DNA of 64,000 nt from Prochloraceae cyanobacterium (GTDB lineage: Bacteria > Cyanobacteriota > Cyanobacteriia > Cyanobacteriales > JASJDA01). The notes beneath the pieces were generated by a model, which saw only the letters and a list, made by a program, of their open reading frames with translations, searched no databases and was not told where the DNA came from. Of this stretch, positions 5,649 to 49,376 are shown piece after piece; within the stretch, counting starts at the first letter, position 1; every line of letters begins with the position of its first letter. A program made the position numbers and the translations under genes. The DNA lies in contig JASJCW010000006.1 in the NCBI GenBank assembly GCA_030065265.1, forward strand, positions 1,820 through 65,819, in the 5' to 3' direction.

Positions 5649-5791
5649 AAATACCCTAGATGACTAGGGGCTGTGTTGTCTATAAATCTCTGTTAAAGTT
5701 TAAATCACTGCCATAGATAATCATCTATCTTTGACTTTGATGTAAGAGTATTATAAATGATATGAGAATAGTTTAATAGGGAGCGATCGCC

Positions 5792-5938
5792 GTGCCGCTT
5801 AAAAAGGGATATAGTAAGAAGAGTATAAGCGACAATATCAAGAGAGAAAGAAAAGTGGGGAAGTCTACCAAGCAAGCAACAGCGATCGCTTTGTCAGTTG
5901 CCAAAAAAGCTAAGGCTAAAGCGAAAAAGAAAAAGTAG
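5792..5938 (+). CDS. small basic protein (48 aa), GYSKKSISDNI...KQATAIALSVAKKAKA type
   Basis: Not in the ORF track. GTG start 8 nt after GGGAG. Translation: VPLKKGYSKKSISDNIKREKKVGKSTKQATAIALSVAKKAKAKAKKKK. It looks more protein-like than the antisense hydrophobic ORF 5773..5967. Confidence 0.45.
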   Translation: MPLKKGYSKKSISDNIKRERKVGKSTKQATAIALSVAKKAKAKAKKKK

Positions 5939-10773: not shown

Positions 10774-11433
10774 TTATTGATTTTTTACGCTCGTGGAGTC
10801 CCCTGCGCGAAATACAGATGGCATTATATCTGAGGTTATTGTTTTAGATTCAGAATTGTTGACAATTTTTATCCCTTGAATCAGATCTCGAATAAAGACC
10901 AGATCGGTGGAAATGTAATTTTCAGGTAGCGACTGTTCGATCTCTTCTATCTGCCACTGAGAGCGATCGCAATTTAACAGCAGGTTGCCTGCTATTTTTA
11001 CAGCTAGAGTAAAGTAAGGCTTATAACCGACTGTCCCATTTAATGGCAATTGCTTTGCTTCTATTTTGAGAAAAGAAATTATAGCCTTTTGTAAGTGGGA
11101 GTAAGAACTAATTTTACTGTCATTGGCTAAAAAATACAAAAAATCTTCTAACTCATTTGAAGTCTCTAAATGTTCTGGGATGCTAACTTGTAGATTAGAT
11201 TTGCTTTGAAAGTCCTGTACTCTTTTGATAGTTTCTATGAAATTTTGTATTTCCTCGCCACTTTTTTTAAGACTTTTAGATTCGAGGCAATCTTGAAAGC
11301 TACGCAAACAACAGATTAAAAAGTCAGATTTGTAGCTGACAATCTTGCCTAATTCAGAATCCGCTAATATTCTTTTAAACTCAGTAGGGAACGATTTTAT
11401 TAATCGTTGTATCTTTTTCTCGTCTAGTTTCAT
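10774..11433 (-). CDS. hypothetical protein (219 aa)
   Basis: ORF from the track. Its ATG overlaps the terminase ATG on the other strand (CATGATG, 11431..11437). Confidence 0.55.
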   Translation of the reverse strand: MKLDEKKIQRLIKSFPTEFKRILADSELGKIVSYKSDFLICCLRSFQDCLESKSLKKSGEEIQNFIETIKRVQDFQSKSNLQVSIPEHLETSNELEDFLYFLANDSKISSYSHLQKAIISFLKIEAKQLPLNGTVGYKPYFTLAVKIAGNLLLNCDRSQWQIEEIEQSLPENYISTDLVFIRDLIQGIKIVNNSESKTITSDIMPSVFRAGDSTSVKNQ

Positions 11434-17948: not shown

Positions 17949-19874
17949 TTATTTGAAAATATCTTGATAAGATATATTTGCATCTTCATAGACTATTGCT
18001 TGATTAGCTAACATTCTTATTTCCTGAACTTTTCTAAGCAAAACTGTCAATTCAGCAGGACTTGAGATTATATCCGCTAAAGATACAGCGAATTCAGCAC
18101 AATATTTATTGACATCTTCGTGTTTTTTCTGCCTTTCTTTATTTACAGGTGGATGATAAGAAAAAAGGTTTTTTAATTTTTCTTTGTTCACGATCTTTCT
18201 ATCTCTAGTCAATCTTTGCAATAAATTATAGCACTGTTGGACTTCCACTGAAGAAATATTTAAACAGGATTCTATTTCGCGATCGCTGGCATCTTCTAAT
18301 TTTAAAGCTACGAACAGTTCTAAACGATCGACAATTTCTTTTGAGTAAACTTTACTGGCACGATCGAGAAGTAGTTCTATTTCGGTTTGAGCTTGATTTG
18401 AAGTTTCTTCAGTTGGATTATGCTTTGCCCATTCTGGAAGATAAGAAGTATTTTTGACATTTGAATTGTCTATTTTATACTTTCTAAGAAAATGTAATAA
18501 TTTTATATTTACCCAAGATATTTTGCTTAAAGTTCCATTTTCTTTTTTGCCAATTTCAATATAAATATTCAAAGTCTGATAAATATGAGCGTACAGATCG
18601 GATATTTCAATTTTAGTTTTAGGTTCGTAATCTAAAGGCAAGCAAGAATCTTTTAAATATTTTTCCCTAGCCTTTTCTATAAAGAAAATAGCGAATTCTT
18701 GAGAGTAATTATCTACTAAAACTAAATCATTGTTTGTTATGGCAACAAGTCTTCGATAAACTTTATGTTTGATTGCATTGACGATTTTATTAAATATTAA
18801 ACTAGTATTTAATTGATAAACATATTGAATATTTTTTAAAAACTTATCTCGCCAAAATTCTATTAATGCCGATCGCGGCGTTACTTCTTGTTGTTTAGCT
18901 TTTTGTTTTTCTTGCTTTCTAAAAGCGATTAAGGTAATTTCAACTGACAATCTAGCTGCTACTTTTAGACAAGATTGTTTTTTATATCCATCTAATTCTC
19001 TGAGATTGCAGTAAAAATAATGAATTAGTTCTGCTACGATCGCATTAAATTCTTCAACTAAATCTCGCGGACACCAATAAACAGGGTAATCAAATTCAAA
19101 AAAATTCATTCCATTTTTGATAGGGGTATCTCTTTTAGCACATTTACGAATGGCAGTTGAAGATATATTTAAAGCTGTTCCTGCTTTTACTGCGTCTTTA
19201 TAGTATTCTTTGCGATCGAGCCTTACCAAAGGTATAGGTCTACCAACAGTTCGCTGTTTTACTTGATTTAGTTTGTATACTTTACTGGCTATTTCAGGTT
19301 TCAAACATTTGCATAAGTTCTTTTTTTCTATGCCCCAAAATTCTTCTGGATTAGTTAAAGCGAATTGATTTAAAGCTTTTTTAGTTATTAAATAGCGCGT
19401 TATTTTATTTGGTTTAATTTCCTTAAATTTTAACCCTTTTTCTTTCCATCTAAGTATCCTGGTTTTATGCTTTAAACCAAACGTTCTCATGAGATCGTGA
19501 ACGCACCAATTGTCTTTTGAAACTTTAATTTTTTTATTGGTTTTAGAGTATTCAAGTTTAACATAATTGTTTTTAAGCTCTGGAACTGTTTTAACAAGAA
19601 AACGAATTTTATGAATGATCTGAGACGATGTTTTTTGATACCATCCTTTTTTTTTAGCTATATTATTCCACTGTTCGATAATAATAAAAAGTGGTTGAGT
19701 CTGAATTAATTTTGTTAATTTTTGCTCTTCTTCTTTTGACCAAATAGCTCCAGGATTTCTGGTCTTAACAATTAGTTTCGCTCTACATTCAGGAGAGCAA
19801 GATTTTCTTTTTTTATATTTAGGCTGTTGAAATTCTTTGCCGCAAAATTCGCAAATACTTTTCTCTTTAAGCAA
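17949..19874 (-). CDS. large multi-domain DNA-binding protein (Zn-ribbon-like N-terminus, SANT/Myb-like WSKEEEQKL, NUMOD1-like HTH, sigma70 region-4-like HTH)
   Basis: 641 aa. CEFCGKEF...CSPEC. AGTALNISSTAIRKCAKR. LEDASDREIESCLNISSVEVQQCYNLLQRL. Domain calls are from pattern recognition only. Confidence 0.6.
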   Translation of the reverse strand: MLKEKSICEFCGKEFQQPKYKKRKSCSPECRAKLIVKTRNPGAIWSKEEEQKLTKLIQTQPLFIIIEQWNNIAKKKGWYQKTSSQIIHKIRFLVKTVPELKNNYVKLEYSKTNKKIKVSKDNWCVHDLMRTFGLKHKTRILRWKEKGLKFKEIKPNKITRYLITKKALNQFALTNPEEFWGIEKKNLCKCLKPEIASKVYKLNQVKQRTVGRPIPLVRLDRKEYYKDAVKAGTALNISSTAIRKCAKRDTPIKNGMNFFEFDYPVYWCPRDLVEEFNAIVAELIHYFYCNLRELDGYKKQSCLKVAARLSVEITLIAFRKQEKQKAKQQEVTPRSALIEFWRDKFLKNIQYVYQLNTSLIFNKIVNAIKHKVYRRLVAITNNDLVLVDNYSQEFAIFFIEKAREKYLKDSCLPLDYEPKTKIEISDLYAHIYQTLNIYIEIGKKENGTLSKISWVNIKLLHFLRKYKIDNSNVKNTSYLPEWAKHNPTEETSNQAQTEIELLLDRASKVYSKEIVDRLELFVALKLEDASDREIESCLNISSVEVQQCYNLLQRLTRDRKIVNKEKLKNLFSYHPPVNKERQKKHEDVNKYCAEFAVSLADIISSPAELTVLLRKVQEIRMLANQAIVYEDANISYQDIFK

Positions 19875-22663: not shown

Positions 22664-23185
22664 ATGGCATTTTTCACAGATGTCTTTTCGGTTCCGACGC
22701 TAACAGAACTTAAAGCGATTGCCTCTACTGGCAGACGAGATCGTATGAATGTTTTAGTCGCTGAGCCAGCAACGGGTTATATTGGAGCAACTTACAGTTA
22801 CAGACAAAATGCTACTCTAACGGAACTATTGCCCATAATTGCCGTCCCAAATGACACTCAAGGTGCTTGGGTATCGAACAATCCTATATATGCTGATACT
22901 GCTATCCCTTCAGCAGCACCGCCATTAATAGGGATTATTTGGGTGGCTACACTTACCAGTCCCGATCGCGTGGTCACTTTTCGTTCTGTGGGAACTAGTG
23001 CTGATACTGATTGGATTCCAGTTAACAACAATGCGGTTGTAGATAGCGCGACACCTTCTCACAGTGCTGATTTTATCGGGCAAATTTTCTATGACAATAG
23101 CGCTGATGAATTTCATCTGGCAACTGATACTTTCGGAACTTGGCAATTAATAGGGAGCAGTACTGGCGGTGGTACAGGATATTAA
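22664..23185 (+). CDS. hypothetical protein (173 aa), possibly structural
   Basis: ORF from the track. Gly-rich C-terminus GSSTGGGTGY. Confidence 0.55.
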   Translation: MAFFTDVFSVPTLTELKAIASTGRRDRMNVLVAEPATGYIGATYSYRQNATLTELLPIIAVPNDTQGAWVSNNPIYADTAIPSAAPPLIGIIWVATLTSPDRVVTFRSVGTSADTDWIPVNNNAVVDSATPSHSADFIGQIFYDNSADEFHLATDTFGTWQLIGSSTGGGTGY

Positions 23186-24506
23186 AATTAGTGTAATCAC
23201 GACTTTTTATAATGCGGAAGCTTACCTGAGACAAGCAATTGAAAGCGTTTTCAATCAAGAATATACTAATTGGGAATTGGTTTTGTGGGACGACGGATCG
23301 ACTGATGGGAGCGAAGCGATCGCCAGAGAGTTTCTCAGTCAATATCCTGAAAAAATATATTTAGCCAAAGACAATACAAACAAAGGGAGAGGGAACGCTC
23401 TATACGAAGCGATCGAAGTCTCGACAGGTGAAGTTTTTTGCATTCTCGATGCTGACGATCGCTTAGGTACAAAAGCTTTAAGCTTGGTTAATAACGTGTT
23501 TATTAATAATCCTCCTAACGTCGGATGGTTGTATACCAATTATACTGAGTGCGATAAGGACGGCAATCAACTAAGGCTCGGTACTAAGAATAATATTATC
23601 TACAGCAGATTAAACGAACTTCATACAATGTGCTGTTTTCATCTGAGAGCTATTAGGCGATCGTTTTACGAGGAGACTCCTAAAGTCAATCGCACTCTTA
23701 CAGCAGCAGTTGACCACGATCTAAACCTCAAACTTTCGGAGCAAGGGAAGCCAATACACATTAAAAAAGCTGTTTACAAGTATCGGTTACACAGCAATCG
23801 TATCTCCGTAGAGAAGAAAAAAGAACAGGGAGAAACTTTTGTCGCTTGCTCTGAAGCAGCAATAAAGCGTAGAGGTTGGGAAGGTAGATATTATCTCTCT
23901 CACACTGAAGATTACAGCAGTATTCAGCTATGCGAGAAAAAGTATCTTAGGGAACCTTTGCCACAAAAAGTATTCTGTGTTGGTTTAGGTCGGACGGGAA
24001 CGCGATCGCTTACTAGAGCTATTCAGATGCTAGGCTACAACACAGTTAAGAATCCTCGCGATTTAAACGTACTTCAATATTTTGATGCTGCTTCAGACGT
24101 GCTGATAGCTGCTAGCTACCAGCAATTAGATGAGACTTATCCTAATAGTAAATTTATACTGACAGTTAGAGATATTCCCAGTTGGTTAGATTCGTGGGAG
24201 CAGCACAACACGCGATCGCTCTCTAGATTTAATAATGAGCTTCCACAATGGGTTAAAGATTTCAGGATTATGTTATACAGTCAATGGGAGTTCGATCGCA
24301 CTGTATGGCAAGCTAAATACAATCAGCATTATAACTCTGCAAGAAATTATTTCTCGGGTAACTCTAACTTTATTGTTTTTAATATTTTCGAGGACGATCG
24401 TTGGCAAAAGTTAACACAATTCTTAGCTTTAAATAGTGATTTGCCACTATCTGTAACCGAAACAAACAAAGTAACTAGTAACAAGTTTCCTGCGATTAAA
24501 AATTAA
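23169..24506 (+). CDS. bifunctional family-2 glycosyltransferase / sulfotransferase fusion
   Basis: N-terminus ISVITTFYNAEAYLRQAIESVFNQEYTNWELVLWDDGSTDGS ... ILDADD (GT2). C-terminus FCVGLGRTGTRSLTRAIQMLGY ... KFILTVRDIPSWLDSW (PAPS-binding-loop sulfotransferase pattern). Confidence 0.8.
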   Translation: MVQDIKISVITTFYNAEAYLRQAIESVFNQEYTNWELVLWDDGSTDGSEAIAREFLSQYPEKIYLAKDNTNKGRGNALYEAIEVSTGEVFCILDADDRLGTKALSLVNNVFINNPPNVGWLYTNYTECDKDGNQLRLGTKNNIIYSRLNELHTMCCFHLRAIRRSFYEETPKVNRTLTAAVDHDLNLKLSEQGKPIHIKKAVYKYRLHSNRISVEKKKEQGETFVACSEAAIKRRGWEGRYYLSHTEDYSSIQLCEKKYLREPLPQKVFCVGLGRTGTRSLTRAIQMLGYNTVKNPRDLNVLQYFDAASDVLIAASYQQLDETYPNSKFILTVRDIPSWLDSWEQHNTRSLSRFNNELPQWVKDFRIMLYSQWEFDRTVWQAKYNQHYNSARNYFSGNSNFIVFNIFEDDRWQKLTQFLALNSDLPLSVTETNKVTSNKFPAIKN

Positions 24507-35042: not shown

Positions 35043-35581
35043 TCTTACAAGCTCTAGAATATGGAGAGAAATTTTATAGAAAAGAAAAGGTAGACTCAGA
35101 ACTCCCGATCGCCGCGCTTACTCGTCAACTGGTAGCCATACACGATACTAAAAATCGCAAGTACAAGCTATCAGATTTCTGCTTGTTTGCTGAAGAAACT
35201 AAAAAAACTGCTGATATACCTGCAGCAGTAGCTAATACTTTCCTTTCTCTCACTGCTCAAAGTAAAGTCCCCAACTGGTGTTTATTCTCTGGTCTCGATC
35301 CTCAGAAAATAAAAGCTAGCTCGGATTTAGAATCAGGCTACACCATTCCAAGAGCTTGGACGAACAGGGAGGAAAAAGTCTTCTTTGTCTCTCCTTTCTT
35401 TTTAAATCAAGAGCTAATAGTTCCTCTGTGCTTTTTCGGTCGCAATTTCAATCGATCGCAAGTAATAACTCTGAACGACGTGGATAGCGGTAAAGGATAC
35501 AGAGTACACCTAAAAGATCTTCAGAATTTTTGCGGTTATGCAGATAAAGAAGTATTTAACTTAGTTGGTATTGTAGTATGA
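34308..35581 (+). CDS. tail assembly chaperone GT-like fusion made by a -1 frameshift at 34898..34904 (about 424 aa)
   Basis: By my codon-by-codon reading the -1 frame is open from 34847 to the stop at 35579..35581. Track ORF 35183..35581 is the tail end of this frame and has only a TTG start. Confidence 0.65.
34898..34904 (+). other. programmed -1 ribosomal frameshift slippery site A_AAA_AAC
   Basis: Zero-frame codons are ATA AAA AAC (I K N), so X_XXY_YYZ is satisfied exactly. Confidence 0.65.
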
Positions 35582-38500
35582 GCGAAGTCTCTATAAAGTT
35601 ATCGGTAGGAATAGACGAGCAAGAGTATCTCAGAGAGATAAGTAAAATACAGAGATCGCCTGTAGATTTACAAGCTAGCTTAAATCCCACTGGCTTAAAA
35701 AGTGACTTTGAGAAATTCTCTCGTACCAACAAAATAGACTTACAGCCAGCTTTAGATACTCGCTCTCTTGGTAATTCCCTAGCCAGAGCAGCAAGACAAA
35801 CTCAATTAAATCTAAATTTTACTCTAGACAAAAAAGCTACTGAAGAAGCTATCAAACAATTCGCTAAACAGAAACAAACTATTATTAGCAGTGCTGGAGA
35901 AGTAAAGGATAATTCCAATAAAGATTTAGCCAATACTCTTAATAGTTTTACCAAGGATTTTAGCAGAAGCTTACAAGAGTTTAACAAGGAGTTAGCTCGA
36001 CAACAAAAAAGAAATAAAACTGGATTATTTGGCAATGTATTTAAGGCTTTGTTAGGAGGAGCTTTAAGTCAAGTAGGAGGCTTTTTAGCACAGTCTTTTA
36101 TAGATCGAGCCAGAGCGCAAGCTTTCAACCTTGCCAGGATTTTAAGTGGCAAAGGTGCCATTGAGGAGTTTAAGGGAACTGACGCACAAGCTAAAACATT
36201 ACAACTTAGATATTTAGAAAGAATTGCTAGAAATACCAACAAATTAAGCTTTGGCGGTTTAGAAAATGAAGTTAATAGAGCTAAGAATAATACTAAAAGT
36301 ATTATAGACATACTAAAAAGTATCGATCGCAAAACTGAAAAGCCAGAAGGTTCTATATCTAAGCTGCTAAAAATTCCCTTTGCCAAATTAGAGCAAATAT
36401 CAGTGGGATTCTTTGAAAGGATAGGAGGGTTAAAAGCTGAAACAGTGTTCCCAGCTTTCGACCGAGGCTTTAAAGAAGTTCTGGGAATTAAAGATGAAGA
36501 CATACAAAAAGAAGCTTTTACTAAAGGAGCTATATTCGCAGCACTGCTTAAAGAAAGTGGCACGCAGTTAGATAAATTCAAACAGAAATTATTAGCTAAT
36601 GTTGAAGCGCTAAAAATAGCTGCTGTAGAGAGAGCCAAAGAAGTTAAGAAGCGCGGGGGCAAAGCAGCAAAGGATCCTTTAGCTGAAGTAGGGCAAGCGC
36701 TAGAATTCCTAGATCGTGCAGTTCCTAAAGAAATAGCTGTACCTATTAAATTTATCGTTCCTTCTAAGACTCTACGAGCCATATTAGAAGAAAAAGGAGT
36801 GCTAGTAAAAGGTAGGGAAGAAATTACAATACCTCTCAGGTTCGACGTAAAAGGAAAGCTAGAGACTGTAGTCAAGACTTTAGATGAAAAGATACCAGAA
36901 AAATTAAACATCCCAGTTACTCTTCTCCCTACCAATATCAAAGAAACTTTAGGGCAAGTATTTAAAATTCAAGACGAACAAATAACAATACCTTTAAGAT
37001 TTGATATACCTTCACCTCAAGATATATCTAAAAAAATTCAATCCCTCTATGGCAAGCAAGCAGGGATTAAAATCAGTATCCCTATCTTCCCAGATATAGA
37101 CTTAAGGGCAGAAGAAGCTAGGCTGATTACCGAGCCATTGAACGAACTTAAAAAGAACATTCAAGAAGTAATAAGAACGCAACAAATCAAGATACCTCTA
37201 ACATTTTTAGCTAACTTTATTACCCCTGAAAATGAAGGTCAAGATATTGCTGATTATGCTAAGGGATTGAGAGGGAAAATAAATCAAATACTATTAAACA
37301 ATTTTGACAAAGAGATAATCGTACATTTAGACAAAATAATACAGCCTTTTTTAGACCCAAGTAGTTTTGTTTCTCAAGTAAAAGAATCAGTAAAAGTCTT
37401 GCCTTCAAAAGTCAAGGAAGCTTTAAAAAATCTACCAGATATAGACATAGAAATCCCCTTGTCAATACCTCAGCTACAGATACCTAGTTTTGGTATGTCG
37501 TCTCTTTCTGGGAACAAAATAGAAGCTTATGCGCTTTCAGTTATTGACGCTGTAAATTTAAAATTACTGCAAGTATCAGCAGCAACTAAAGAAGGGATAA
37601 AGTTTAAAATACCTGTCCCAAAAATAGATTTAGATGCTCTATCGATGAGTTTAAAAATGCTCAAGTTAGAGTTAGAATCAGAGTTAATTGCTAGACTGCA
37701 AAAGTTAGATCGACCTATAGACATTAAAATTCCTAAGATTACTTTTAAGATTCCCGATCGCATCGAAGATCCAAAAATCATAATGAAATACAACATTGTG
37801 ATGCAACAGATATTAGCGGGAATCAGGGAAGAAACCGATTCTATAAATGAAGCTTTAGCGAAAATTTCTTTCGGGGCAATTCAAATACCTAGGTTTAGTT
37901 TGCCTCCACTAACCAGAACGGGAGCCAATAAGTTTTTAGATTCGTTGCGAGAAATAAAGGCGACTATTAACGAGGATATTGATAGTTTTAATGTTGCACT
38001 TAACGAGTACCTAAATAGTTTTAAAAATGGCTCTAAAAGTTTTATTCTCCAACTTAGTTCAGTTGTTGGCAATATACCTAATGCTATACAATCTAGCATA
38101 CAAGATTTTAGCTTAGAGAAAGTTACTGCTGAACTAAAAACTAAAGTAAGTAAGTTTGTAAAAGATGTTAAAGAGTTAGACGATCGCAAGATAGCTGTAA
38201 ATTTAGAGATTTGGAAATTCAACGTAGTCAACAACATCACGGACGCTTACAGAGATTTAGAGAGCAAGATCAAATCTATTCCACCTCTAACAATTCCTTT
38301 ACCTAACATTGTTTTGCCAGATCTAGGGATTATATACCCCACATCAGTAGACGAGAAAATATATATAGGATTCGTCAACAGGTTTAACAAGACTTATCAA
38401 AACTTGAGAGAAAAGCTACAAAATATCAAATTAGGGGATCTTAATATCCCTATTAAACCAGGTAGTATATTACTAAGTATAAAAGCTTTTGAAATCACAG

Positions 38501-41500
38501 AGGATGTAGTCTCCCTTCAAAAGAACTTTGACCGAGCGATCGGTTTAATTAATAATCAATTTGAAGTTGGCAAGAATAGAATAGAAAAAACTTACACTGA
38601 TTTAGTTATTTCCCTCGAAGCTTTTAGCGGCAAGGATCTTAAGTTAAATCTTCCTAATATCCAGATACCAGATCTAGGCATAGATATTAATACAGCTAGC
38701 GCCGATGAGAAAGTATTCAAACAGATAGTAGATGCTATAAATCAAAGCTATTTAAAAGTTAAAACAGCACTCGAATCGAAATCGGTTAAACTGCCAGAAT
38801 TCAAACTACCATTAACAATCAATGCCCCTAAAATACAATTGCCTAACAGCTACGATATTATTTTTGGCACTCAAGACTTAATAGATTACTCGAAAAAAAT
38901 TTATAATGAATTTAGAGGGAAGTTACAAGAGTTAGCTAACGACCCGTCTTTATCAGTAGAAATAAAAATACCTAAGCTCAAGTTAAAGTTACCTGAAATA
39001 GTATACAAAGATATTGATAAGTTACCAGGATTATTAAGAGTATCTCTCAAGACTTTAAAACTTGTAGAGACATTACAAGATGTCTTAGACAGAGAGGCTG
39101 ACAAAACTATAACTATAAAATTCCCTAATATAGAATTACCAGAAGCCGAGCAAATACCAGAAGTATTTAAGCAAAAAATAAAAGGAATAAAGCAAGGAGT
39201 TTTAGAGCTTCCAGCAAAAATAAATCTACAATTACAAGAAAGTCAAAAAGACTTACAAGTTTTATTAGAAACTTCAAAAGCTATTTTTGGCAATATGGCT
39301 AATAGTTACGCTGTTCTTTTTGGAGCTAAAATAAGCGAAACTAAAAATAAATTTTATGATTTTATAGATAACATTCCTAAAAGAATAGAAATAGATTTAA
39401 CTTTTGACTTGCCAGACCCCAACCAATGGTTGGAGCAAGCCAATAAAACTATAGAAGAGATAGTTAAAAACCTGAGAAAAGCTCAAGGAGAGTTCAAGTA
39501 TAGAGACTTGCAGCAAGCTGTAAAAGCTTACAAACAGCAAGGCTTGACAGATATTGACTTGAGATCGAGCGCTGCTAAACTGCAGGCTGAATACGATCGG
39601 ATCAAGCAAATTCAAGTCAGTGAATTTAAAGAGATGGTTGGGAATGCTGGGAAAACAGCAGAACTCTTATCGCGATCGTTCCTATTCGATCTGATTTTTT
39701 CCGATATTAGTGCAGCATGGCATAAAACCAACAATTCCCTAACAGGGGACATGAAAGATCTCTCCCATCTCTCCGAAAAGATCGGTGATGACGTGCTGCA
39801 CGATTTGGCTGAAGGTTCCCCAGGACTGACAGCAGACATAAGAGCAGCATGGGCTAAAACTACTGCTTTTATAGGGAAAAAGCTACACGAAGTCAAGCAA
39901 GCAGCAGTAAGCGCAGGGAGCAAAATAAAAGAGAGTTTGACAGCGCCACCCACACAAGAGAGTTATACATCTTCTCAAGGTAAATATGATAGCTCTAGAG
40001 CGCAAGCAGCTATCAGAGGAGTGCGATCTAGTGCAGCAGAAAACGTACAAAATCTAAAGCAGCGTTTCAGCAATACTGCCAATAGAGCAGATATAGGGGC
40101 TAGGAATGTAGCAGGTAGATTTTTTGACGAGGGAGATGTTAATCGCGAAGCTGACAAGATAAAAGATAGTATCTCTGACTTTGCCTCACAAGTTCGAGAT
40201 ACGATCGCTAATGGAACTGAAGCAGCTAGAACCGCAGCGAGGAAAAATCTATTTAAATCAACTGACGACGTTAATAAGACTTTAAATAAGCTGAGAAACT
40301 ATAAAAAGGATTTTGACAAGGTTTACTCAAGTCTGTTCGAGCAAGTTAGACGAGCCGCGCCAAATGTCGATCTCAGTTCGTTAGAGCAAAGCTTAACTAA
40401 GATCTCTCAAGCTGAATCGAAAGTAAGCAGCTTATTGGAAAACTTCGACGTACCGCTAGATCTGGAAGGAAATATTGACAGTGACAAATTACTGAGAGAT
40501 CTGGCCAAAGTAGAGAAAGCGCTAAACGAGTATAGAAAGGACATTAAGGAACTCAACAAAGAAACTACCCTCTTGTCTCCTAAAATGCTAAACGCTCTTC
40601 CAGAAGATGTGAAAGCAGCAATTAAGAGAGCTGCTAGTGCTGCTAGTGCTGAATTGGATAATTTGAGCGAACGCGGTCAAAGAGCCATTAGGGATATATT
40701 CGATTTGCCGCCAGAACTAACAAGCCAATTACCAGAAAAGCTTAGAAGCCAATTAGAGAATTTAATCCAGCGCGGTGGTGGTCAAAGGTACTCTCAAGCT
40801 GAAGAAGAAATGAGAGGTGTTACTCAGCAAGCTAATAGATTAGCTCAAGCATTAGGACAAGTAAGAAAAGTAGGAGGGAAAGCTCTATTCTTATTACTTG
40901 GCTTCGTTGCTATTAAATCAGCTTTCTCAAGTCTATTCGGCCAGATAGGGCAAATAGTACAGTCAGCAGTTTTAGATTTGCAGAATAATTTTAACAATGC
41001 CATTGAAGTAAGAGCATTTAAAAACCTCTTCAAGCAATTCGAGCGATCGGCTAATGACAGCTTTGACTCAGTAATAGAAAAAGCTAACAGATTAGGGCAA
41101 GACTTAAAGACTTTAGCTAACACTCAATTATCATTTCAATTATCACTTCAAGGGACAGCAGTAGAGGATCAGTCAAGTCAAATCACGGAAAGCTTAACAG
41201 CAGGTTTAAGCGCTTTCGGACTGTCTAAGGACAAGTTTCAGCAAGCGATGACAGCTTTACAGCAGATAGCAGGAAAGTCAGTTGTTAGCATGGAGGAGTT
41301 GAGGCAACAATTAGGAGAAGCCCTACCAGCAGCAACAGCCATAGGTGCTAGATCTATGGGATTGACTCAACAGGAATTCAATCAATTAGTAGCATCAGGA
41401 AATTTATTAGCTGAAGACTTTTTACCGAAGTTTTCTAAACAGTTAAAACTAGAAACTATGGGCATTTTTATTAAAAATGCTAACAGTGCTTCTAACAGTT

Positions 41501-44500
41501 TTAATAGATTGAAAAACGAAGCTTATCTTACTAGTGCTGCTATGGGCGAATTTAACCTCGCTATAGGAAAACCAGTATTTGGAGTACTGGTAAACGGACT
41601 GAAAGCAATTAGAGAAAATATGCAGGTAATTAGCTTGCTAATTGCTGGAGGGTTAGTTGTTTATTTAAGAGTGCTAATAAAAACAGCACTTGCAGCAGCA
41701 GTAGCCACAGGGAGAGCTATGGGGACAATCGAGTCCAGTACTAAAACTGCTACTGCTGCTGTGAGAATTTTAGGAGGTGTCCTAAAATCTATAGCAATAC
41801 AATTTGGGATAGTTTTAGTCGCTGCACTAGCTATTAAAGCTGCGGCGAACATTTGGGACGTGTGGACGGGTGGAGGCAACGAATTTATCAAATCAGTCAG
41901 GGAAGCTAGGGAAGTCAGCAAAAATTTGAGGACTGACTTACAAGGTGCTTTCGATCGCCTCAATGATATTAGGGAAGCTGAAGGATTAAAGCCAATTGAA
42001 GTAAACATAATAGTCAAGCGAAAAGTAGAAGACGAAAAAGAGCCAGTTAGGGAAATTCCGATCGCTACTGATAAATTCAGCCAAGGGATGGATTATGTAT
42101 TGAATGCTGCTATCTCAGCTTTTGACCCTCGAACTTATATAAGCAGAATGAAATTAGAAAACCCTTATAAAGAATACAATTTAATAGCCAGAAAAGAAGT
42201 AGAAAATACTCTCAAAGAAGCCGGTAAATTTGTCAAAGAACAGAATGAAGATCTGAGCTTATTGATGAATCCTTATCAGGATAAAGGCAAGCAACAGCAA
42301 GCTTTAAAAGATGCTCTCAGATTGAAAGATGAAATATCTAGAATCAAAGTAGAAATAGGTTTAGAGAAACTCAAGCCAGAATTAGACACTGAAAGCTTAA
42401 ACAATCTAAAAGCTGCCTTACAAGAGGCTAATAAAAAATATTTAGCAGCACAAGAGACACTATTGCCTCAAGGTGGAACTCAAGCGATCGCCAGGCTGAG
42501 AAAACAAGCTAAAGCCAGAAGGCGAGAGTTAGTGGAGAAAGGACAAAAACAAGGTTTTGAAGGGGTAGAACCATATATAAAACAGATTGACGATTATATA
42601 GCTCGTCTCGATGCTGCTGAACCTCAAATAAGAGAAATACAAGAAGCATTTAAACAAGGGATTTATAATTTTGCTAATGCCTTTGCCGTTGTCGATCGCG
42701 AGTTAGGAGCTAAGCGATACGATATCAACATTGAAGATGCTAAAACTAGAATCAGTATCCTACAACAAGAAGTTAAAAACTTGCTCGCTCCCGAAGAGGT
42801 TAAACTGAAAATATCTCGCGCTGACTTGAGAAAATATGAAGCTGAAATTAAAACTTATCAAGAAGAAATAGCTAGAAAGCAAGAAACGATCGCTAAGAAT
42901 ATTACTCCCAGTTTCAGAAGTCAACTTGAAAAAGCAGCAGGGAAAAAATTAGAACTCTTTACAAGTGCTGACGTTGAAGGGATATCAAAAAGCTTTGCTG
43001 CTAATAATATAGCTCTAAATAACTCCCAAAAAGCTGTATTGCAAGCTCTCAAGGATATATCTGAAGCCAGAGCCAAAGAAAATCAAACTGAAATAAATAG
43101 ACTTAAATCTCTCAAAGAAACTATATCGGCAGCATACAAGCAATTAAAAGATACAGTGGCTAAATCGAAAGAAGCTAGCGGCAGAATTCTAGCTAAAAGG
43201 AGATTGGAGATAGTAACAGCTAGAGAGACAGGAGATATATCTCAAACTGGCTTTGACAAGCTACTTAAAAACTTAGATATAGCTAGAACTAAAGAGAAAA
43301 TAAAACTCAAATATCAAGAATTAGCAGCAGAGAAAGAAGCCCTTGAAAAGAGTTTTATTAATCAAAGACAATATGCAAAAAGAGAAACCAAAATATACGA
43401 CGATCTAGCTGAATTAAAAAACAGTTTATTAGATAAAGAAAAAGCTAAGCAAGAGAGATTGATAGACTTAAAACAGCAAGCTTTAAAACTAATAGATTTA
43501 GAGATAAAGAAAAATCAAAACTTGCTTTACAGTTACGATCGCCTTTCCAATAATGTATTAACTCTATATACCAATTTAAACAATGCTAGAAAAGAGTTAG
43601 CCACAGCTAGTGGAACTTTAGACCAGACTCAATTTAAAGGCGAAATAGACAGGATAAATAAAGCTATAGAACTCAGAAAAACTTTAGCTAATAAAGATGC
43701 TTCAGTCAAAGATAGAAGCCAAGCTAGGTATCAACTGAAGCAATTAAATATATATGGAAATATCAATCAACTAGAAAAGAAAAAGGCAACTATACAAGAT
43801 AAATCAGATATAGCAAGACTTACAGCACTCAAAGAACAGCAAGCACTCTCCTTAAAATTATTGCAGATTGAGCGACTCAGAGCAATTACTGTAGCCAGAC
43901 GAGCGATCGAGCAAGCCAAAATAGAAAAGCTTCAATCAGCGAAAAACTTTCTCACAGCACAAGGGGAATTACAAAAAGCTTTACTCGATGGGGACAAGAC
44001 TAAAATCAGGATAGCTAAATTAGGTTTAGAGATAGCACAGCAAGAGATAGCTATAGGGCAGCAGAAGATTAAAGACGCTAAAAACGCTCTAGCTACTGAG
44101 AGAGAAATAAGCAGAATCAAATTACAAGCCAATAAAAAACAGCGCCAGAATGAATTACTACAAGCAACCAATGAAATCAGACTGAATAACCCCGATCTGC
44201 TGAGGAAAAAACAGCAGAAAAAAGACTACTCGATATTTATCGACTTCGGCGATCGCCAGGTATTTAGAGAGAAAAAATACGAGAGACCAGATCCGAAAGA
44301 CTTTGTAAAAGGTCTCTCTGATATCGAGATTAATCCTAAGTTTACCCGCGATCGAGAGTTAGAAAACTTCAAGCCAATAGTAGATATTGGCAATGAAAAA
44401 CTAAATAGAGAATATACTCCTTATCTAAAGCCGAGATTACCAGAACCTAGTTTAGTTGCAGATCGCGATCTAATCTCGTCAGAAGCGCTAGGCAATCGTC

Positions 44501-44949
44501 GTCTGGGGACTCTCCCGCAGCTTACAGATCGCGATCTGGATTTAAAACGAGACTTTAGCAAGTTAGCGCCAGGAGTAACACCATTTCCAGAAACACTTCA
44601 CTCTCAAACAACATCTATCGATAAAATCCCACAATTACTACAACAGATAGATCGAAATACTCAATCTCAACAACTGAACGAGCGAGCAAATCAGCAGCTT
44701 AACGATCGCGTCAGCCCTGTAGATACAGAACAATTAGAGCAAAAAACAGTATATGCAAAAAATATACTAGATACTAATACAGCTATACTAGGTAAAGTTG
44801 GTGAGATGCTGAATACTATTAAATCGAAGCCATTAGGACAAATTGAGATAAACAACACTGTCCCTGATAGCAGCCAAAATTTAGCTGACGATTTAACTAG
44901 AAAAACTATAGAAGGAATTGTAAATATAATCGAACGTGCAGCAGGTTAA
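35578..44949 (+). CDS. tail tape measure protein (3123 aa)
   Basis: Giant ORF after the chaperones with an ATGA overlap. The tape-measure core pattern QQAMTALQQIAGKSVVSMEELRQQLGEALPAATAIGARSMGLTQQEFNQLVASGNLLAEDFLPKF is followed by hydrophobic segments. Long coiled-coil-like regions throughout. Confidence 0.9.
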   Translation: MSEVSIKLSVGIDEQEYLREISKIQRSPVDLQASLNPTGLKSDFEKFSRTNKIDLQPALDTRSLGNSLARAARQTQLNLNFTLDKKATEEAIKQFAKQKQTIISSAGEVKDNSNKDLANTLNSFTKDFSRSLQEFNKELARQQKRNKTGLFGNVFKALLGGALSQVGGFLAQSFIDRARAQAFNLARILSGKGAIEEFKGTDAQAKTLQLRYLERIARNTNKLSFGGLENEVNRAKNNTKSIIDILKSIDRKTEKPEGSISKLLKIPFAKLEQISVGFFERIGGLKAETVFPAFDRGFKEVLGIKDEDIQKEAFTKGAIFAALLKESGTQLDKFKQKLLANVEALKIAAVERAKEVKKRGGKAAKDPLAEVGQALEFLDRAVPKEIAVPIKFIVPSKTLRAILEEKGVLVKGREEITIPLRFDVKGKLETVVKTLDEKIPEKLNIPVTLLPTNIKETLGQVFKIQDEQITIPLRFDIPSPQDISKKIQSLYGKQAGIKISIPIFPDIDLRAEEARLITEPLNELKKNIQEVIRTQQIKIPLTFLANFITPENEGQDIADYAKGLRGKINQILLNNFDKEIIVHLDKIIQPFLDPSSFVSQVKESVKVLPSKVKEALKNLPDIDIEIPLSIPQLQIPSFGMSSLSGNKIEAYALSVIDAVNLKLLQVSAATKEGIKFKIPVPKIDLDALSMSLKMLKLELESELIARLQKLDRPIDIKIPKITFKIPDRIEDPKIIMKYNIVMQQILAGIREETDSINEALAKISFGAIQIPRFSLPPLTRTGANKFLDSLREIKATINEDIDSFNVALNEYLNSFKNGSKSFILQLSSVVGNIPNAIQSSIQDFSLEKVTAELKTKVSKFVKDVKELDDRKIAVNLEIWKFNVVNNITDAYRDLESKIKSIPPLTIPLPNIVLPDLGIIYPTSVDEKIYIGFVNRFNKTYQNLREKLQNIKLGDLNIPIKPGSILLSIKAFEITEDVVSLQKNFDRAIGLINNQFEVGKNRIEKTYTDLVISLEAFSGKDLKLNLPNIQIPDLGIDINTASADEKVFKQIVDAINQSYLKVKTALESKSVKLPEFKLPLTINAPKIQLPNSYDIIFGTQDLIDYSKKIYNEFRGKLQELANDPSLSVEIKIPKLKLKLPEIVYKDIDKLPGLLRVSLKTLKLVETLQDVLDREADKTITIKFPNIELPEAEQIPEVFKQKIKGIKQGVLELPAKINLQLQESQKDLQVLLETSKAIFGNMANSYAVLFGAKISETKNKFYDFIDNIPKRIEIDLTFDLPDPNQWLEQANKTIEEIVKNLRKAQGEFKYRDLQQAVKAYKQQGLTDIDLRSSAAKLQAEYDRIKQIQVSEFKEMVGNAGKTAELLSRSFLFDLIFSDISAAWHKTNNSLTGDMKDLSHLSEKIGDDVLHDLAEGSPGLTADIRAAWAKTTAFIGKKLHEVKQAAVSAGSKIKESLTAPPTQESYTSSQGKYDSSRAQAAIRGVRSSAAENVQNLKQRFSNTANRADIGARNVAGRFFDEGDVNREADKIKDSISDFASQVRDTIANGTEAARTAARKNLFKSTDDVNKTLNKLRNYKKDFDKVYSSLFEQVRRAAPNVDLSSLEQSLTKISQAESKVSSLLENFDVPLDLEGNIDSDKLLRDLAKVEKALNEYRKDIKELNKETTLLSPKMLNALPEDVKAAIKRAASAASAELDNLSERGQRAIRDIFDLPPELTSQLPEKLRSQLENLIQRGGGQRYSQAEEEMRGVTQQANRLAQALGQVRKVGGKALFLLLGFVAIKSAFSSLFGQIGQIVQSAVLDLQNNFNNAIEVRAFKNLFKQFERSANDSFDSVIEKANRLGQDLKTLANTQLSFQLSLQGTAVEDQSSQITESLTAGLSAFGLSKDKFQQAMTALQQIAGKSVVSMEELRQQLGEALPAATAIGARSMGLTQQEFNQLVASGNLLAEDFLPKFSKQLKLETMGIFIKNANSASNSFNRLKNEAYLTSAAMGEFNLAIGKPVFGVLVNGLKAIRENMQVISLLIAGGLVVYLRVLIKTALAAAVATGRAMGTIESSTKTATAAVRILGGVLKSIAIQFGIVLVAALAIKAAANIWDVWTGGGNEFIKSVREAREVSKNLRTDLQGAFDRLNDIREAEGLKPIEVNIIVKRKVEDEKEPVREIPIATDKFSQGMDYVLNAAISAFDPRTYISRMKLENPYKEYNLIARKEVENTLKEAGKFVKEQNEDLSLLMNPYQDKGKQQQALKDALRLKDEISRIKVEIGLEKLKPELDTESLNNLKAALQEANKKYLAAQETLLPQGGTQAIARLRKQAKARRRELVEKGQKQGFEGVEPYIKQIDDYIARLDAAEPQIREIQEAFKQGIYNFANAFAVVDRELGAKRYDINIEDAKTRISILQQEVKNLLAPEEVKLKISRADLRKYEAEIKTYQEEIARKQETIAKNITPSFRSQLEKAAGKKLELFTSADVEGISKSFAANNIALNNSQKAVLQALKDISEARAKENQTEINRLKSLKETISAAYKQLKDTVAKSKEASGRILAKRRLEIVTARETGDISQTGFDKLLKNLDIARTKEKIKLKYQELAAEKEALEKSFINQRQYAKRETKIYDDLAELKNSLLDKEKAKQERLIDLKQQALKLIDLEIKKNQNLLYSYDRLSNNVLTLYTNLNNARKELATASGTLDQTQFKGEIDRINKAIELRKTLANKDASVKDRSQARYQLKQLNIYGNINQLEKKKATIQDKSDIARLTALKEQQALSLKLLQIERLRAITVARRAIEQAKIEKLQSAKNFLTAQGELQKALLDGDKTKIRIAKLGLEIAQQEIAIGQQKIKDAKNALATEREISRIKLQANKKQRQNELLQATNEIRLNNPDLLRKKQQKKDYSIFIDFGDRQVFREKKYERPDPKDFVKGLSDIEINPKFTRDRELENFKPIVDIGNEKLNREYTPYLKPRLPEPSLVADRDLISSEALGNRRLGTLPQLTDRDLDLKRDFSKLAPGVTPFPETLHSQTTSIDKIPQLLQQIDRNTQSQQLNERANQQLNDRVSPVDTEQLEQKTVYAKNILDTNTAILGKVGEMLNTIKSKPLGQIEINNTVPDSSQNLADDLTRKTIEGIVNIIERAAG

Positions 44950-46859: not shown

Positions 46860-47870
46860 ATGGCTATGGCTCAACAAGATAATGCACCAGAAAGTACTAG
46901 TGCAGCAAAAATAGACTTAACTACCATTACTCCACAGCAGCTTGAAGCTTTGACTAAAAACATGGCTGATAACAAAAGTTCAAGCCCTACACAAAAAGAA
47001 GAGAAACAAGCTCAACAAGTTCAGAACCCTGAAACTGTATTAGATCTCTACACATCCTATAAAAACGAAAATACTAGCTTAAAAAGCAAAATCAAAGAAT
47101 TAGAGCAACAAATACAATCAACAAATAACAATGGCAATAATGGCAATAATTTAGACTTAGAAAAATTAACTAACTTGCTAACTCAAGACCAAAGCCAACA
47201 AAGGGAAACACTAGAACAGCAAATACAGCAATTACAGAAACAAAAGACTAGCTTAAAACTTGAAGATCACGCCAGAAAACAGGAATGGGACAAAATAACT
47301 GAAATCCACTTAAACCAACAGAAAGAAGATTATAACAAGCAAATAGAGTCTTTAAGCTCTCAATTAGAGCAATTTAAACAGCAAAATCAATCTCTTAACA
47401 CTCAACTTTCTAGTAGCTTAGAGGAAATCGATCGCAACAATAGAAAGCAAGCAGCACTCAGTAAGTTTATTGCCGAAGGTGGGGATCCTTCCCACTTCGA
47501 GTATCTTTGGCGCGTGGATCTAGAACCTTACACTAAATTCGACGAGAAAGGGCAATTAAAGCTTTTTAACCCTGTAACTAAAACTTTTGTAACTGACGAA
47601 TCAGGTAAAAATTATTTAGGCGTCGAAAATAAAATACAGGAATTCAAACAAGGCTCTCAAGCGCTCTTTTTCTCGCCAATATATAGAAGTTCTGGGATAG
47701 GAACTAACAATCAAGGCTTTAATACTCAAAGCACGGATTTTACTAACTTTAAAGTTAGTAAGCGAATCTGGACTGATACAAATTATTTCAATCAAGTAAA
47801 GCAACAGATAAAAATGGATCCTCTAGAAGCAATACAAAAAGGCTTGATTCAAGTTGACACTCAAAGCTAA
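46860..47870 (+). CDS. putative scaffolding protein
   Basis: 336 aa, Q/N/E/K-rich and coiled-coil-like. Directly precedes the major capsid gene. Confidence 0.55.
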   Translation: MAMAQQDNAPESTSAAKIDLTTITPQQLEALTKNMADNKSSSPTQKEEKQAQQVQNPETVLDLYTSYKNENTSLKSKIKELEQQIQSTNNNGNNGNNLDLEKLTNLLTQDQSQQRETLEQQIQQLQKQKTSLKLEDHARKQEWDKITEIHLNQQKEDYNKQIESLSSQLEQFKQQNQSLNTQLSSSLEEIDRNNRKQAALSKFIAEGGDPSHFEYLWRVDLEPYTKFDEKGQLKLFNPVTKTFVTDESGKNYLGVENKIQEFKQGSQALFFSPIYRSSGIGTNNQGFNTQSTDFTNFKVSKRIWTDTNYFNQVKQQIKMDPLEAIQKGLIQVDTQS

Positions 47871-47891
47871 TTGTAATAGCATGATTTTATT

Positions 47892-48073
47892 GGGGGCGCA
47901 ATGCCGACCATCCGCAAGGTAAAGAAGAACCAACAGGATCCTAAATTGCCTGGCTCCAGCAGCAAAATAGATTTAGGTGGGGGCGCAATGCCGACCATAA
48001 GAAGACCCAACAGATTCTGAGATCGTCTGGCTCCAGCAGCAAAAAAGACTCAGTGGGGGCGCAATGCCGACCA
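47892..48073 (+). repeat. three tandem units, each headed by the box GGGGGCGCAATGCCGACCA
   Basis: Boxes at 47892..47910, 47979..47997 and 48055..48073. Units 1 and 2 also share ctggctccagcagcaaaa, held in the loop of hairpins with different stems (cctaaat/atttagg versus ctgag-a-tc/gactcag). Confidence 0.75.
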
Positions 48074-48197
48074 GAAGAAGATATATCAGGGCATAGAGTC
48101 CCGCGGTGCAAGATCGAAATACTCGTCACAGAGCAACTTAGACCAACAAAAGTCGTGCTCATATTTTCGTATCTCTTCACTAGATTAAACAATCATC

Positions 48198-49376
48198 ATG
48201 GTAGTCAACGTAATACAGGACATTGTACCCAGTATTAGAGCTACTGGCGCTGCTGTACTGAGAGCTTATAATCTCTTCCCTAATTTGATAAATAGTAGTT
48301 ATTCTGTGGATGCCAGACAGCCAGGATCTGCGGTTGAAGTTTCTATACCTCCGACAATAACGACTAGAAAAGTAGTTCCAGGCAATATCCACCCAGCAAG
48401 CACGCCTTTTACTGTTGGCTCGGTTCCGATAGTATTAGACTTTTTTGAAGAATCTGAATTCGGGTTGCCTGAAGACGAACTCGGAAAAATACAGAATAGA
48501 GAGGTATCCTCGTTTACTCAATCAGCAGCAGTATCGATCGTTCAGGCTGCAAATACTTATACCATCAATAAGATGTATAAGCGATCGTACAATGTTATTG
48601 GGGATGTAGCTACAACGCCTTTTGAAAACGGTACTACTTCTTACGCGAATAGAGCCAGAAGAGTATTAGATGAGAATCTAGCTCCGAATAACGATCGCTA
48701 TCTGGTGCTAGATCTATTTGCTGACGAGAAAGCGTCGAGTTTAGATTTATTCCTGAGAGTCAATGAATCTGGGACTGACCTAACTTTAAGAACTGGTGAA
48801 ATAGGAACTAAGCTTGGATTTAGTTGGTGGCGGACTCAATTAATGCCCCGTCACGAATCAGCTCCAGGACTTGACGGTGCTTATCAAATTGATTCTACTA
48901 CCCACGCGATTGACGACACTCAAGTGACTATTTCTCAAGTGGGAGGCGCGCCTAACGTTGATTTTGTTGAAGGTGACATATTTACTGTCGCTGGGGATGC
49001 CCAAACATACGTGGTAACTAAAACTGAAGTAGGTGTAAATAGCGGCGATCTTACTTTGCAATACTTGCCAAAAGCTAAAACTGCTTTCGCTGACGACGCG
49101 ATTATAAGTGTAATTCCTACTCACACTGTTAGTTTAGCTTTCCACAGAAACAGCACTGGTTTTGCTAATAGATTGTTATTTGTTGATGAATTTCAACATC
49201 AAATGCCTGGAAAGATCATCGAGCCAGTTAGAGATCCTGAAAGTGGATTGACCATGACTTACCTTGCTAGCCCGCAGTACTACCAAACAAGCCACGCTTA
49301 CAGTATCCTTTGCGGAGCAGCTGTGATCCGCCCAGAGCATATAGTTAGAATAATAGGCAATCCCAACCCTGCTTAG
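48198..49376 (+). CDS. major capsid protein (P22 coat-like, HK97 fold with insertion domain)
   Basis: 392 aa, after the scaffold gene. The N-terminal pattern (..LRAYNLFPNLINSSYSVDARQPGSAVEVSIPP..) resembles P22-coat-family proteins as I recall them. No search was run. Confidence 0.65.
   Translation: MVVNVIQDIVPSIRATGAAVLRAYNLFPNLINSSYSVDARQPGSAVEVSIPPTITTRKVVPGNIHPASTPFTVGSVPIVLDFFEESEFGLPEDELGKIQNREVSSFTQSAAVSIVQAANTYTINKMYKRSYNVIGDVATTPFENGTTSYANRARRVLDENLAPNNDRYLVLDLFADEKASSLDLFLRVNESGTDLTLRTGEIGTKLGFSWWRTQLMPRHESAPGLDGAYQIDSTTHAIDDTQVTISQVGGAPNVDFVEGDIFTVAGDAQTYVVTKTEVGVNSGDLTLQYLPKAKTAFADDAIISVIPTHTVSLAFHRNSTGFANRLLFVDEFQHQMPGKIIEPVRDPESGLTMTYLASPQYYQTSHAYSILCGAAVIRPEHIVRIIGNPNPA

Follow-up and report, generated by a model that had tools for sequence, protein, structure and literature searches.

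In a 64,000-nt stretch of the Prochloraceae cyanobacterium contig JASJCW010000006.1 (hereafter the window), the spacer directly upstream of a P22-type major capsid protein gene contains three tandem modules, each of which opens with the same short box. There is strong comparative evidence that this module is a selected, strongly conserved structured RNA. The boxes are read here as the 5' hairpins of three tandem modules of 70-87 nt which, with the tail that follows them, would form a capsid-mRNA 5' leader of ~300 nt. Such a leader would act in cis, dock a sequence-specific factor and set mRNA stability, read-through or translation; on sequence data, we give this reading about an even chance of being right in full.

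The spacer is 327 nt long, from the stop codon of an open reading frame (ORF) at 46860-47870 to the capsid ATG at 48198. Its GC content is ~0.50 against 0.375 for the window, and its plus strand is A-rich (AT skew 0.35-0.40). A sequence-only reading of the window had described a GC-rich spacer with a box present three times, at periods of 87 and 76, and hairpins with unrelated stems, and exact searches and composition confirmed all of these. The box is the 19-mer GGGGGCGCAATGCCGACCA, with exact plus-strand copies at 47892-47910, 47979-47997, and 48055-48073 (periods 87 and 76 nt). The remark that it was not seen elsewhere in the window was borne out on both strands with up to 3 mismatches, and the box was found in none of 100 shuffles. 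A second repeat, the 18-mer CTGGCTCCAGCAGCAAAA, is present only at 47950-47967 and 48027-48044. In module 1 it is flanked by a stem in which CCTAAATT (47940-47947) pairs with AGATTTAGG (ending at 47977), and in module 2 by CTGAG-TC (48017-48024) pairing with GA-CTCAG (48047-48053), a stem unrelated to that of module 1. The 18-mer had been read as the loop of a hairpin; it does lie in a hairpin, but as an internal loop plus a 3-bp inner hairpin, GCU-CCAGC-AGC, rather than as a plain loop. Two further corrections concern the box, as its third copy opens a complete third module (48055-48124) and the box itself is a hairpin.

Relatives were gathered as contigs encoding a homologue of the capsid protein or of the upstream protein, and the box was found in the matching spacer of five further lineages, giving six with the window. 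Each of the five carries the module there in 2-4 copies (below also called units). The closest, L138, has a capsid protein 95% identical in amino acid sequence to that of the window and has 3 units. L012 (the same as L013-16, L026, and L036; capsid identity 52%) and L018 (50%) each have 3 units and a degenerate copy, L019 (52%) has 2 units and an extra GCAAU hairpin, and L011 (54%) has 2 units. The degenerate copy, or 'unit 0', contains the box variant GAGGGCGCGATACTGAAAC, is located at 5621-5660 in L012 and at about 790-830 in L018, and lies within two mutually exclusive helices, GUUUCA/UGAAAC and CAAACU/AGUUUG. The ends of 'unit 0' recall the termini of CRISPR (clustered regularly interspaced short palindromic repeat) repeats, which we take to be of the form GTTTC...GAAAC. 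Searching with a profile of the unit turned up no extra copy, either elsewhere in the window or in the relatives' flanks.

Across the lineages the module is 68-90 nt long and consists of a short hairpin, H1, corresponding to the box, and a long hairpin. H1 has the form GG-G-[NNN GCAAN NNN]-GA-CC, that is, a 3-bp stem under a loop of GCAA plus one base, with outer GG and CC that are able to pair. The loop is GCAAU, GCAAG or GCAAC in 16 of 16 units, and its final base is never A. H1 is followed by an optional mini-hairpin with a GNRA loop (GCAA, GAAA, GCGA) and then by a purine tract (AAGAAGA, GAAGAGG). In the long hairpin, a variable outer stem (P3, 4-8 bp) leads to an internal loop with a C-rich 5' side and an A-rich 3' side, topped by an inner hairpin of 3-4 bp with a GCAAG or GCAAC cap; units 1 and 2 of the window and of L138 have GCU-CCAGY-AGC at the top instead. 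A further helix, P2 (GACCUG/CAGGUC), is present in L012, L018, and L011 and was left outside the core model because it is not kept in the lineage of the window.

Within the window, all three modules lie on the plus strand. Module 1 (47892-47978, 87 nt; nhmmer E 6e-13) has its H1 box, GG-G-GGC-GCAAU-GCC-GA-CC, at 47892-47909, a mini GNRA hairpin, CC-GCAA-GG, at 47912-47919 followed by the purine tract AAGAAGA, P3 at 47940-47947 / 47970-47977, and the inner hairpin GCU-CCAGC-AGC at 47953-47963. Module 2 (47979-48054, 76 nt) is without a mini-hairpin; its H1 box is at 47979-47996, its P3 is CUGAG-UC/GA-CUCAG, the stem located above, and its inner hairpin is at 48030-48040. Module 3 (48055-48124, ~70 nt) has its H1 box at 48055-48072, P3 as GAGU (48096-48099) with ACUC (48121-48124), and an inner hairpin, CGGU-GCAAG-AUCG (48104-48116), of the type found in the relatives. 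The inner region of unit 2, GUCUGGCUCCAGCAGCAAAA (48025-48044), is also 70% complementary to 48299-48318, within capsid codons ~34-40, including a perfect 7-mer (GUCUGGC/GCCAGAC), which is probably due to chance.

Selection on the fold is evident from a pairing test of H1 and the inner hairpin in a 16-unit alignment (8 pairs, 128 cells); a 13-unit version was also run. Standard pairs occupy 128 of 128 cells, and six of the eight pairs carry changes on both sides. The observed percentage paired, number of doubly changed cells, and covariation score were each reached in 0 of 500 shuffles, and the observed count of doubly changed pairs in 6 of 500. When partners were slid by 1-3 columns as a control, pairing fell to 16-47% of cells. 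Individual substitutions can be followed between close pairs of genomes. L138, ~90% identical to the window, has U-A in place of C-G as the closing pair of H1 in units 2 and 3, and its module 1 mini-hairpin loop reads GAAA where the window has GCAA, which keeps GNRA. Two double substitutions, A-U to G-C and G-C to A-U, separate the unit-1 outer stems of L012 and L018 and make up four of the unit's seven differences. Among the 13 units tabulated (those without L138), every outer stem has its own sequence and pairs with its own partner, and own-unit outer duplexes are more stable than cross-unit ones (permutation p = 0.0017). The earlier suggestion of stem covariation around a conserved loop is upheld in substance; comparison with L138 shows, however, that the unit-1 stem differs by a block swap and not by stepwise mutation.

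The array is also more conserved than its surroundings. Identity between L012 and L018 is 90.6% over the array, compared with 75.6% over the capsid gene, 54.6% at capsid third-codon positions, and 79.4% over the end of the upstream gene. The noncoding array changes several times more slowly than the synonymous sites of the neighbouring genes. The box keeps 18 of its 19 bases between phages with capsid genes that are 59% identical in nucleotide sequence.

Alignment of L138 3533-3760 with window 47892-48124 shows twin changes in different units of one array: the H1 change from C-G to U-A is present in units 2 and 3, and a change from CCAGC to CCAGT in units 1 and 2. Unit 1 of L138 also bears the outer stem of unit 2. 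These parallel changes and the swapped stem indicate gene conversion among modules, and the identity of the three boxes within the window is therefore partly due to homogenisation.

Transcription would proceed along the strand of the head genes. Of the pairs in the defined helices 15 are G-U, among them GGC/GCU in each of the six L012 and L018 boxes, and these become A-C mismatches on the opposite strand. The plus strand folds better in 9 of 13 units (summed energies -259 vs -224 kcal/mol). Taken together, the G-U pairs and the better folding place the fold on the sense strand of the head genes. A candidate sigma-70-type promoter lies on the plus strand at 47854-47882, with TTGACA (47854-47859), a 17-nt spacer, and TAGCAT (47877-47882), matching 10 of 12 consensus positions; it is the sole plus-strand sigma-70-like site in the 2.9 kb scanned. 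The start predicted from it falls near 47889-47892, at the first box. A comparable arrangement relative to the stop codon, 5' of the array, is found in six of six lineages. L138 keeps both hexamers unchanged, with differences at 3 of the intervening spacer bases, L011 has TTGACA-16-TAAAAT (11 of 12) and L019 TTGACG-16-TATAAT (11 of 12), and weaker sites are present in L012 (TTGACA-17-TACTGT) and L018 (TTGACG-17-TACTAT). In L012, L018, and L019 the predicted start is just 5' of an extra 5' hairpin. As the stretch from the array to the start codon leaves no room for a second promoter, the array would have to be part of every capsid transcript. The sequence-only reading had listed several candidate roles, and a structured leader or small RNA (sRNA) is the one favoured by the compensatory changes in six lineages, the strand evidence from G-U pairs, and the promoter 5' of the array. 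Tandem promoters or activator sites, another of its candidates, do not agree with a single promoter-like site located 5' of all boxes and with pre-box sequences that are not conserved.

Between the array and the capsid gene is a tail consisting of a hairpin and a U-rich tract. The hairpin (48131-48160, plus strand) is formed by GAGCA (48131-48135) and UGCUC (48156-48160), with GAC (48141-48143) and GUC (48152-54) pairing inside it. Its 3' arm, UGCUY, is kept in all lineages, and the inner helix shows a compensatory change in L138, from GAC/GUC to UAC/GUA. The U-rich tract AUAUUUUCGUAUCUCUU (48161-48177, plus strand) is conserved with the consensus AUUUKUYGU and lies 21-37 nt 5' of the capsid ATG. 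Candidate roles for it are a terminator tail, a boxA-like site, an RNase E site or a ribosome standby site. The hairpin and its U-rich tail look like a weak intrinsic terminator but fail a strict terminator scan, and folding z-scores for the tail are weak. In L012, L011, and L019 the U-rich tract can pair alternatively with the 3' arm of the outer stem of the last module, which, for so few sequences, is no more than a lead. The UGCUY-N-AUUUKU motif of the tail, present in all lineages, presumably resembles E. coli boxA, which we take to be UGCUCUUUA; in a lambda-type nut site boxA is the 8-nt site for NusB/NusE beside the hairpin.

The reach of the module is limited, as it occurs in a narrow clade only. 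L017 and L054-L056, in which the capsid protein is 31-38% identical to that of the window, lack it, and a profile search of 80 capsid relatives in IMG/VR (28-38% identical) found no module. In the distant relatives without the module the spacer upstream of the capsid gene has a median of ~109 nt. IMG/VR also gave no match to the 19-mer or to a two-box pattern. In bacterial and archaeal DNA represented by one genome per species (596 Gb), the 19-mer has 7 single matches, all in high-GC non-cyanobacteria, where by our own calculation ~4 would be expected by chance. A two-box scan of metagenomes returned 34 matches, of which the real ones were only L026 and L036, both equivalent to L012; the other 32 are high-GC coding repeats, CRISPR arrays, and repetitive extragenic palindromic (REP)-like repeats. 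A two-box match in L039 is a repeat within an XRN-like exonuclease gene. Other kinds of repeat occupy the same place in some distant relatives. In L017 (capsid 38% identical) a different triple repeat at 5660-5900 lies in the 630-nt spacer 5' of the capsid gene; its copies 1 and 2 consist of a GC-rich terminator-like hairpin and a T-run followed by GTGGGTAyATCAAAGGCrAG, and copy 3 is degenerate. The 70-nt scaffold-capsid spacer of L054 (661-730) is full of pyrimidine repeats (CCCCAT / CCTTCAT).

If the array is a cis-acting leader, it could work as follows. A sigma-70-like promoter of the host type would start transcription a few bases 5' of the first box, and the invariant loop with its flanking bases would offer repeated docking sites to one sequence-specific partner; a phage or host RNA-binding protein is the likeliest candidate. 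The array might shield the 5' end of the capsid message in cis, and might also set the share of transcripts that pass the hairpin and U-rich tail and are translated, thus tuning the output of coat protein. Recognition by a specific partner, and not passive stability, is suggested because H1 and its flanks are near-invariant while the outer stems vary freely, and repetition of the module suggests avidity or dosage. We infer transcription from this promoter, the binding of a factor, and the direction of the effect on expression.

By analogy, the partner may be the phage's own coat or scaffolding protein, free protein binding the leader hairpins and thereby shutting down or releasing coat synthesis in a feedback coupled to assembly. 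This would parallel the coat-protein/operator hairpin of single-stranded RNA phages, and would give the layout known from type III toxin-antitoxin pairs, with the coat protein replacing the toxin. We consider such an identity of the partner rather improbable.

Several observations weigh against a cis-acting leader that docks one specific factor. Some of the conservation of the -35 hexamer may be coding, since conserved Val/Ile-Asp codons overlap it, and the -10 hexamers of L012 (3 of 6) and L018 (4 of 6) are weak. Taken whole, the spacer folds with no better energy than its shuffles (z = +0.58), and covariation thus has to carry the case by itself; since the units are gene-converting paralogues, the independent events behind it are far fewer than the cells counted. 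The inner loop of window units 1 and 2 (CCAGC) is unlike that of the other units, so the inner hairpin could not be read alike by one partner. Protection of the message would need only one 5' hairpin. Lineages with the module number six only. Finally, a crude scan for a binding partner among frames of at least 40 aa gave no plausible arginine-rich N-like ORF, and the single arginine-rich stretch that it returned lies in an alternative frame of the portal gene.

An antitermination or attenuation leader in the style of HK022 put or lambda nut, in which the modules, with or without a small phage protein, modify the polymerase so that it reads through the tail, is unlikely, although put RNA is the closest known system in form. 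HK022 put RNA is ~70 nt long with two stem-loops, lies just 3' of its promoter (PL for putL), and acts on its own transcript without a separate gene (PMC9378689). The present modules are alike in size and placement, at 68-90 nt with two hairpin domains and with the first starting ~7-10 nt after the -10 hexamer, and they precede a hairpin and U-rich tract, the UGCUY hairpin and tract standing between array and gene in six of six lineages with one compensatory pair; the likeness is one of form only. Further hallmarks of put are a stem I triplex, contact with the beta' zinc-binding domain of RNA polymerase, and read-through of downstream terminators. Put differs in that it occurs singly per promoter and serves operons that are long, early, and furnished with real terminators. 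The present array has 2-4 copies before one short late unit with a weak terminator candidate, the post-capsid transcription unit is ~2.2 kb without strong terminators, and the terminator scan and z-scores of the tail, as well as the lack of a plausible N-like ORF in the crude scan above, tell against read-through control of this kind. The comparison with lambda or P22 nut begins from a promoter-proximal position and a short hairpin with a GNRA-like capped loop. Lambda-type boxB, the hairpin to which N binds, is defined by a GNRNA pentaloop with a required last A, its first and last bases forming a sheared G-A, on a 5-bp stem (PMC9830547). The loop here, with U, G or C after GCAA and a stem of 3 bp, fails that definition, and element order and copy number differ as well.

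Phages can carry RNAs built from ToxI-type repeats (pseudo-ToxI). The modules could similarly be trans-acting sRNAs or decoys of ~80 nt, cut or terminated from the leader, that titrate a host factor such as a defence nuclease or regulator, or pair with targets, in the manner of pseudo-ToxI or sponge RNAs. This is unlikely to the same degree as antitermination. The order of elements does fit, since a type III toxin-antitoxin locus has one promoter, tandem RNA repeats, a hairpin or terminator, and a protein gene (PMC5086642), and the present loci, from sequence alone, have 2-4 direct repeats 3' of one promoter-like site in six lineages, followed by a hairpin and U tract, which fails the terminator scan, and by a protein gene. 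The copy number ranges from 2 to 4, and the A-rich single-stranded linkers between modules could be cleavage sites. Yet the downstream product is a P22-type coat protein and not a ToxN/AbiQ/CptN/TenpN endoribonuclease, processing by the downstream protein is not expected, and the units are 68-90 nt long compared with the short repeats of the toxin-antitoxin systems. The fixed position before the capsid gene in six lineages argues for a role in cis. No complementary target is present in the window at up to 3 mismatches, the 19-mer is absent from cyanobacterial genomes, and very divergent phages retain the box, although divergence would be expected of decoys of fast-evolving defence RNAs.

Tandem riboswitch aptamers that gate capsid expression through the tail by sensing a small molecule are very unlikely. 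The array resembles them in that its modules are aptamer-sized, stand in tandem in a 5' leader, and combine covarying stems with conserved bases in junctions and loops; several riboswitch classes are known in tandem, and the alternative pairing of the U-rich tract in L012, L011, and L019 would suit a switch. Four spacers (window, L012, L019, and L011) were scanned with Rfam 15 covariance models, and at E <= 10 no model, aptamers included, matched the array on the sense strand, so the array, for which such a scan had been proposed, fits no known family. The Rfam matches obtained were at chance level: one fell within the window's capsid coding region, and the other four were on the opposite strand, in L012. 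Moreover, the inner loops of window units 1 and 2 differ from that of unit 3 within one genome, which is hard to fit to one ligand pocket, and the regulated gene is structural, not metabolic.

Passive hairpins of the REP type between cistrons, which would, without any specific partner, insulate the cistrons or make the upstream message more stable at its 3' end, are still less probable. The array does lie between two cistrons on the same strand, and the distant relative L017 has unrelated hairpin repeats at this very place. A passive hairpin needs no particular sequence, however, and H1 is near-invariant in sequence at ~52% capsid identity, with the array more conserved than the flanking genes. 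Stabiliser hairpins at 5' ends, such as those of the ompA leader and the T7 gene 10 leader, need structure and not sequence, and one copy is enough. They share with the array a G-rich 5' end folded as a hairpin at the start of the mRNA of a highly expressed structural gene, but here a nearly invariant sequence comes in repeated units.

Least probable of all is a DNA-level element, with the boxes serving for packaging or replication or as sites for a late activator or repressor: direct repeats of a conserved 18-19-bp box, with a GGC...GCC inverted repeat resembling operator half-sites, speak for it, but the boxes lie 3' of the only promoter, the periods (68, 76, 87, 88, and 90 bp) are out of helical phase, GGC/GCT in six boxes is a G-U pair in RNA and an asymmetric half-site in DNA, the outer stems differ per unit, which makes them unreadable by a single DNA-binding protein, and yet remain self-complementary, no turn of GC skew marks an origin here, and for packaging, also suggested earlier, no evidence was found, the terminase gene (11345-12877) being 36 kb from the boxes.

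Other identities were considered and rejected. A coding repeat is not supported, as the periods are mostly not multiples of three and there is no conserved ORF. The local ORFs (47941-48192 on the minus strand and 48053-48238 on the plus strand) had been judged spurious from the window, and none is conserved in L011 or L019; long minus-strand frames with few stops arise because the plus strand is A-rich. The units are of the size of transfer RNA (tRNA), and ARAGORN found no tRNA or transfer-messenger RNA gene in the window. In a CRISPR array the 'spacers' would be unrelated sequences rather than 62-79% identical to each other and self-complementary as here; no cas domain was found among the ~38 ORFs screened, and the only gene resembling an RNA-guided nuclease encodes TnpB, 46 kb away. 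A host-derived repeat, either a miniature inverted-repeat transposable element or REP, was rejected on the chance-level genome matches of the 19-mer, none of them cyanobacterial. A promoter for a phage RNA polymerase does not fit a box region that is unique in the genome and preceded by different sequences before each GGGGG. By eye, words in the array resemble 16S rRNA helix 15 (GGGCGCAAGCC) and RNase P RNA, and no covariance-model match supports either. Hammerhead, HDV-like, K-turn, and tetraloop-receptor motifs, likewise checked by eye, did not fit.

The array appears to be a new RNA family with an unusual tandem multi-module build, within the known class of phage cis-regulatory leader RNAs. 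A large-scale screen has described five candidate cis-regulatory RNAs that are typically found 5' of a major capsid protein family (PMC10690425). Those candidates share with the present array the general category of a conserved structure before a capsid gene, but their capsid family is PHA00201 and not the P22 type, and none is described as a tandem multi-module array. That screen drew on data of the IMG/VR type, in which the present motif has no match. No product of a tailed phage is more abundant than its coat protein, and how the output of this protein is tuned after initiation is little known; the array adds an RNA family to the short list of conserved structures beside capsid genes, in this case in never-cultured phages of cyanobacteria and exactly before the capsid gene. 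The 18-nt hairpin and the 70-90-nt module are defined targets for finding an RNA-binding partner. Were that partner the coat or scaffold protein, it would mean assembly-coupled translational control in a double-stranded DNA phage. The modules could also become orthogonal RNA tags.

The genome itself is that of an uncultured tailed phage of a cyanobacterium. NCBI assigns the contig to a Prochloraceae cyanobacterium metagenome-assembled genome, the tailed-phage genes in the window include those for the large terminase, portal (DUF4055), a tape-measure-domain protein, helicase, ParB, and exonuclease, and the HIP1 octamer GCGATCGC occurs 34 times against 0.27 expected, an excess that indicates a cyanobacterial host. 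The capsid gene (48198-49376, plus strand) encodes 392 aa of the P22 coat type (phrog_283, E 4.8e-51; PF11651, E 3.6e-8), and the nearest capsid from a cultured phage is that of Vibrio phage MAR10, at 34% identity. The upstream ORF (46860-47870, plus strand; 336 aa) has the -35 hexamer within its last codons. It is called 'scaffold' by position alone, PHROG and Pfam searches having given no family match; its homologues occupy the equivalent place in L011, L012, L019, and L138. Against GenBank phages a 2.5-kb query from the window gave no DNA similarity, and a query with the spacer alone gave a single 21-nt match at chance level.

Several other features of the genome are of separate interest. 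Immediately 5' of the head-gene block, a plus-strand ORF of 3123 aa (35578-44949) contains a tape-measure (TMP_3) domain at aa 1824-1982; its size and place are unusual, and a homologue of 3181 aa is present in L011. The TnpB of the window (391 aa, 1107-2282, plus strand) has HTH_OrfB_IS605, OrfB_IS605, and Cas12f1-like TNB domains. The TnpB of L138 (396 aa, 116-1306) is at another location, immediately 5' of the head genes, and given this different placement in genomes that are ~90% identical, the element appears to have moved between near-identical phages. A 641-aa protein on the minus strand (17949-19874) has Myb-like DNA-binding matches and, at aa 572-627, a weak, sub-threshold match to the Acb2/Tad1 hairpin domain, a family of anti-CBASS/Thoeris sponges. 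Finally, a family-2 glycosyltransferase fused to a sulfotransferase domain is encoded in this phage genome at 23169-24506 on the plus strand.

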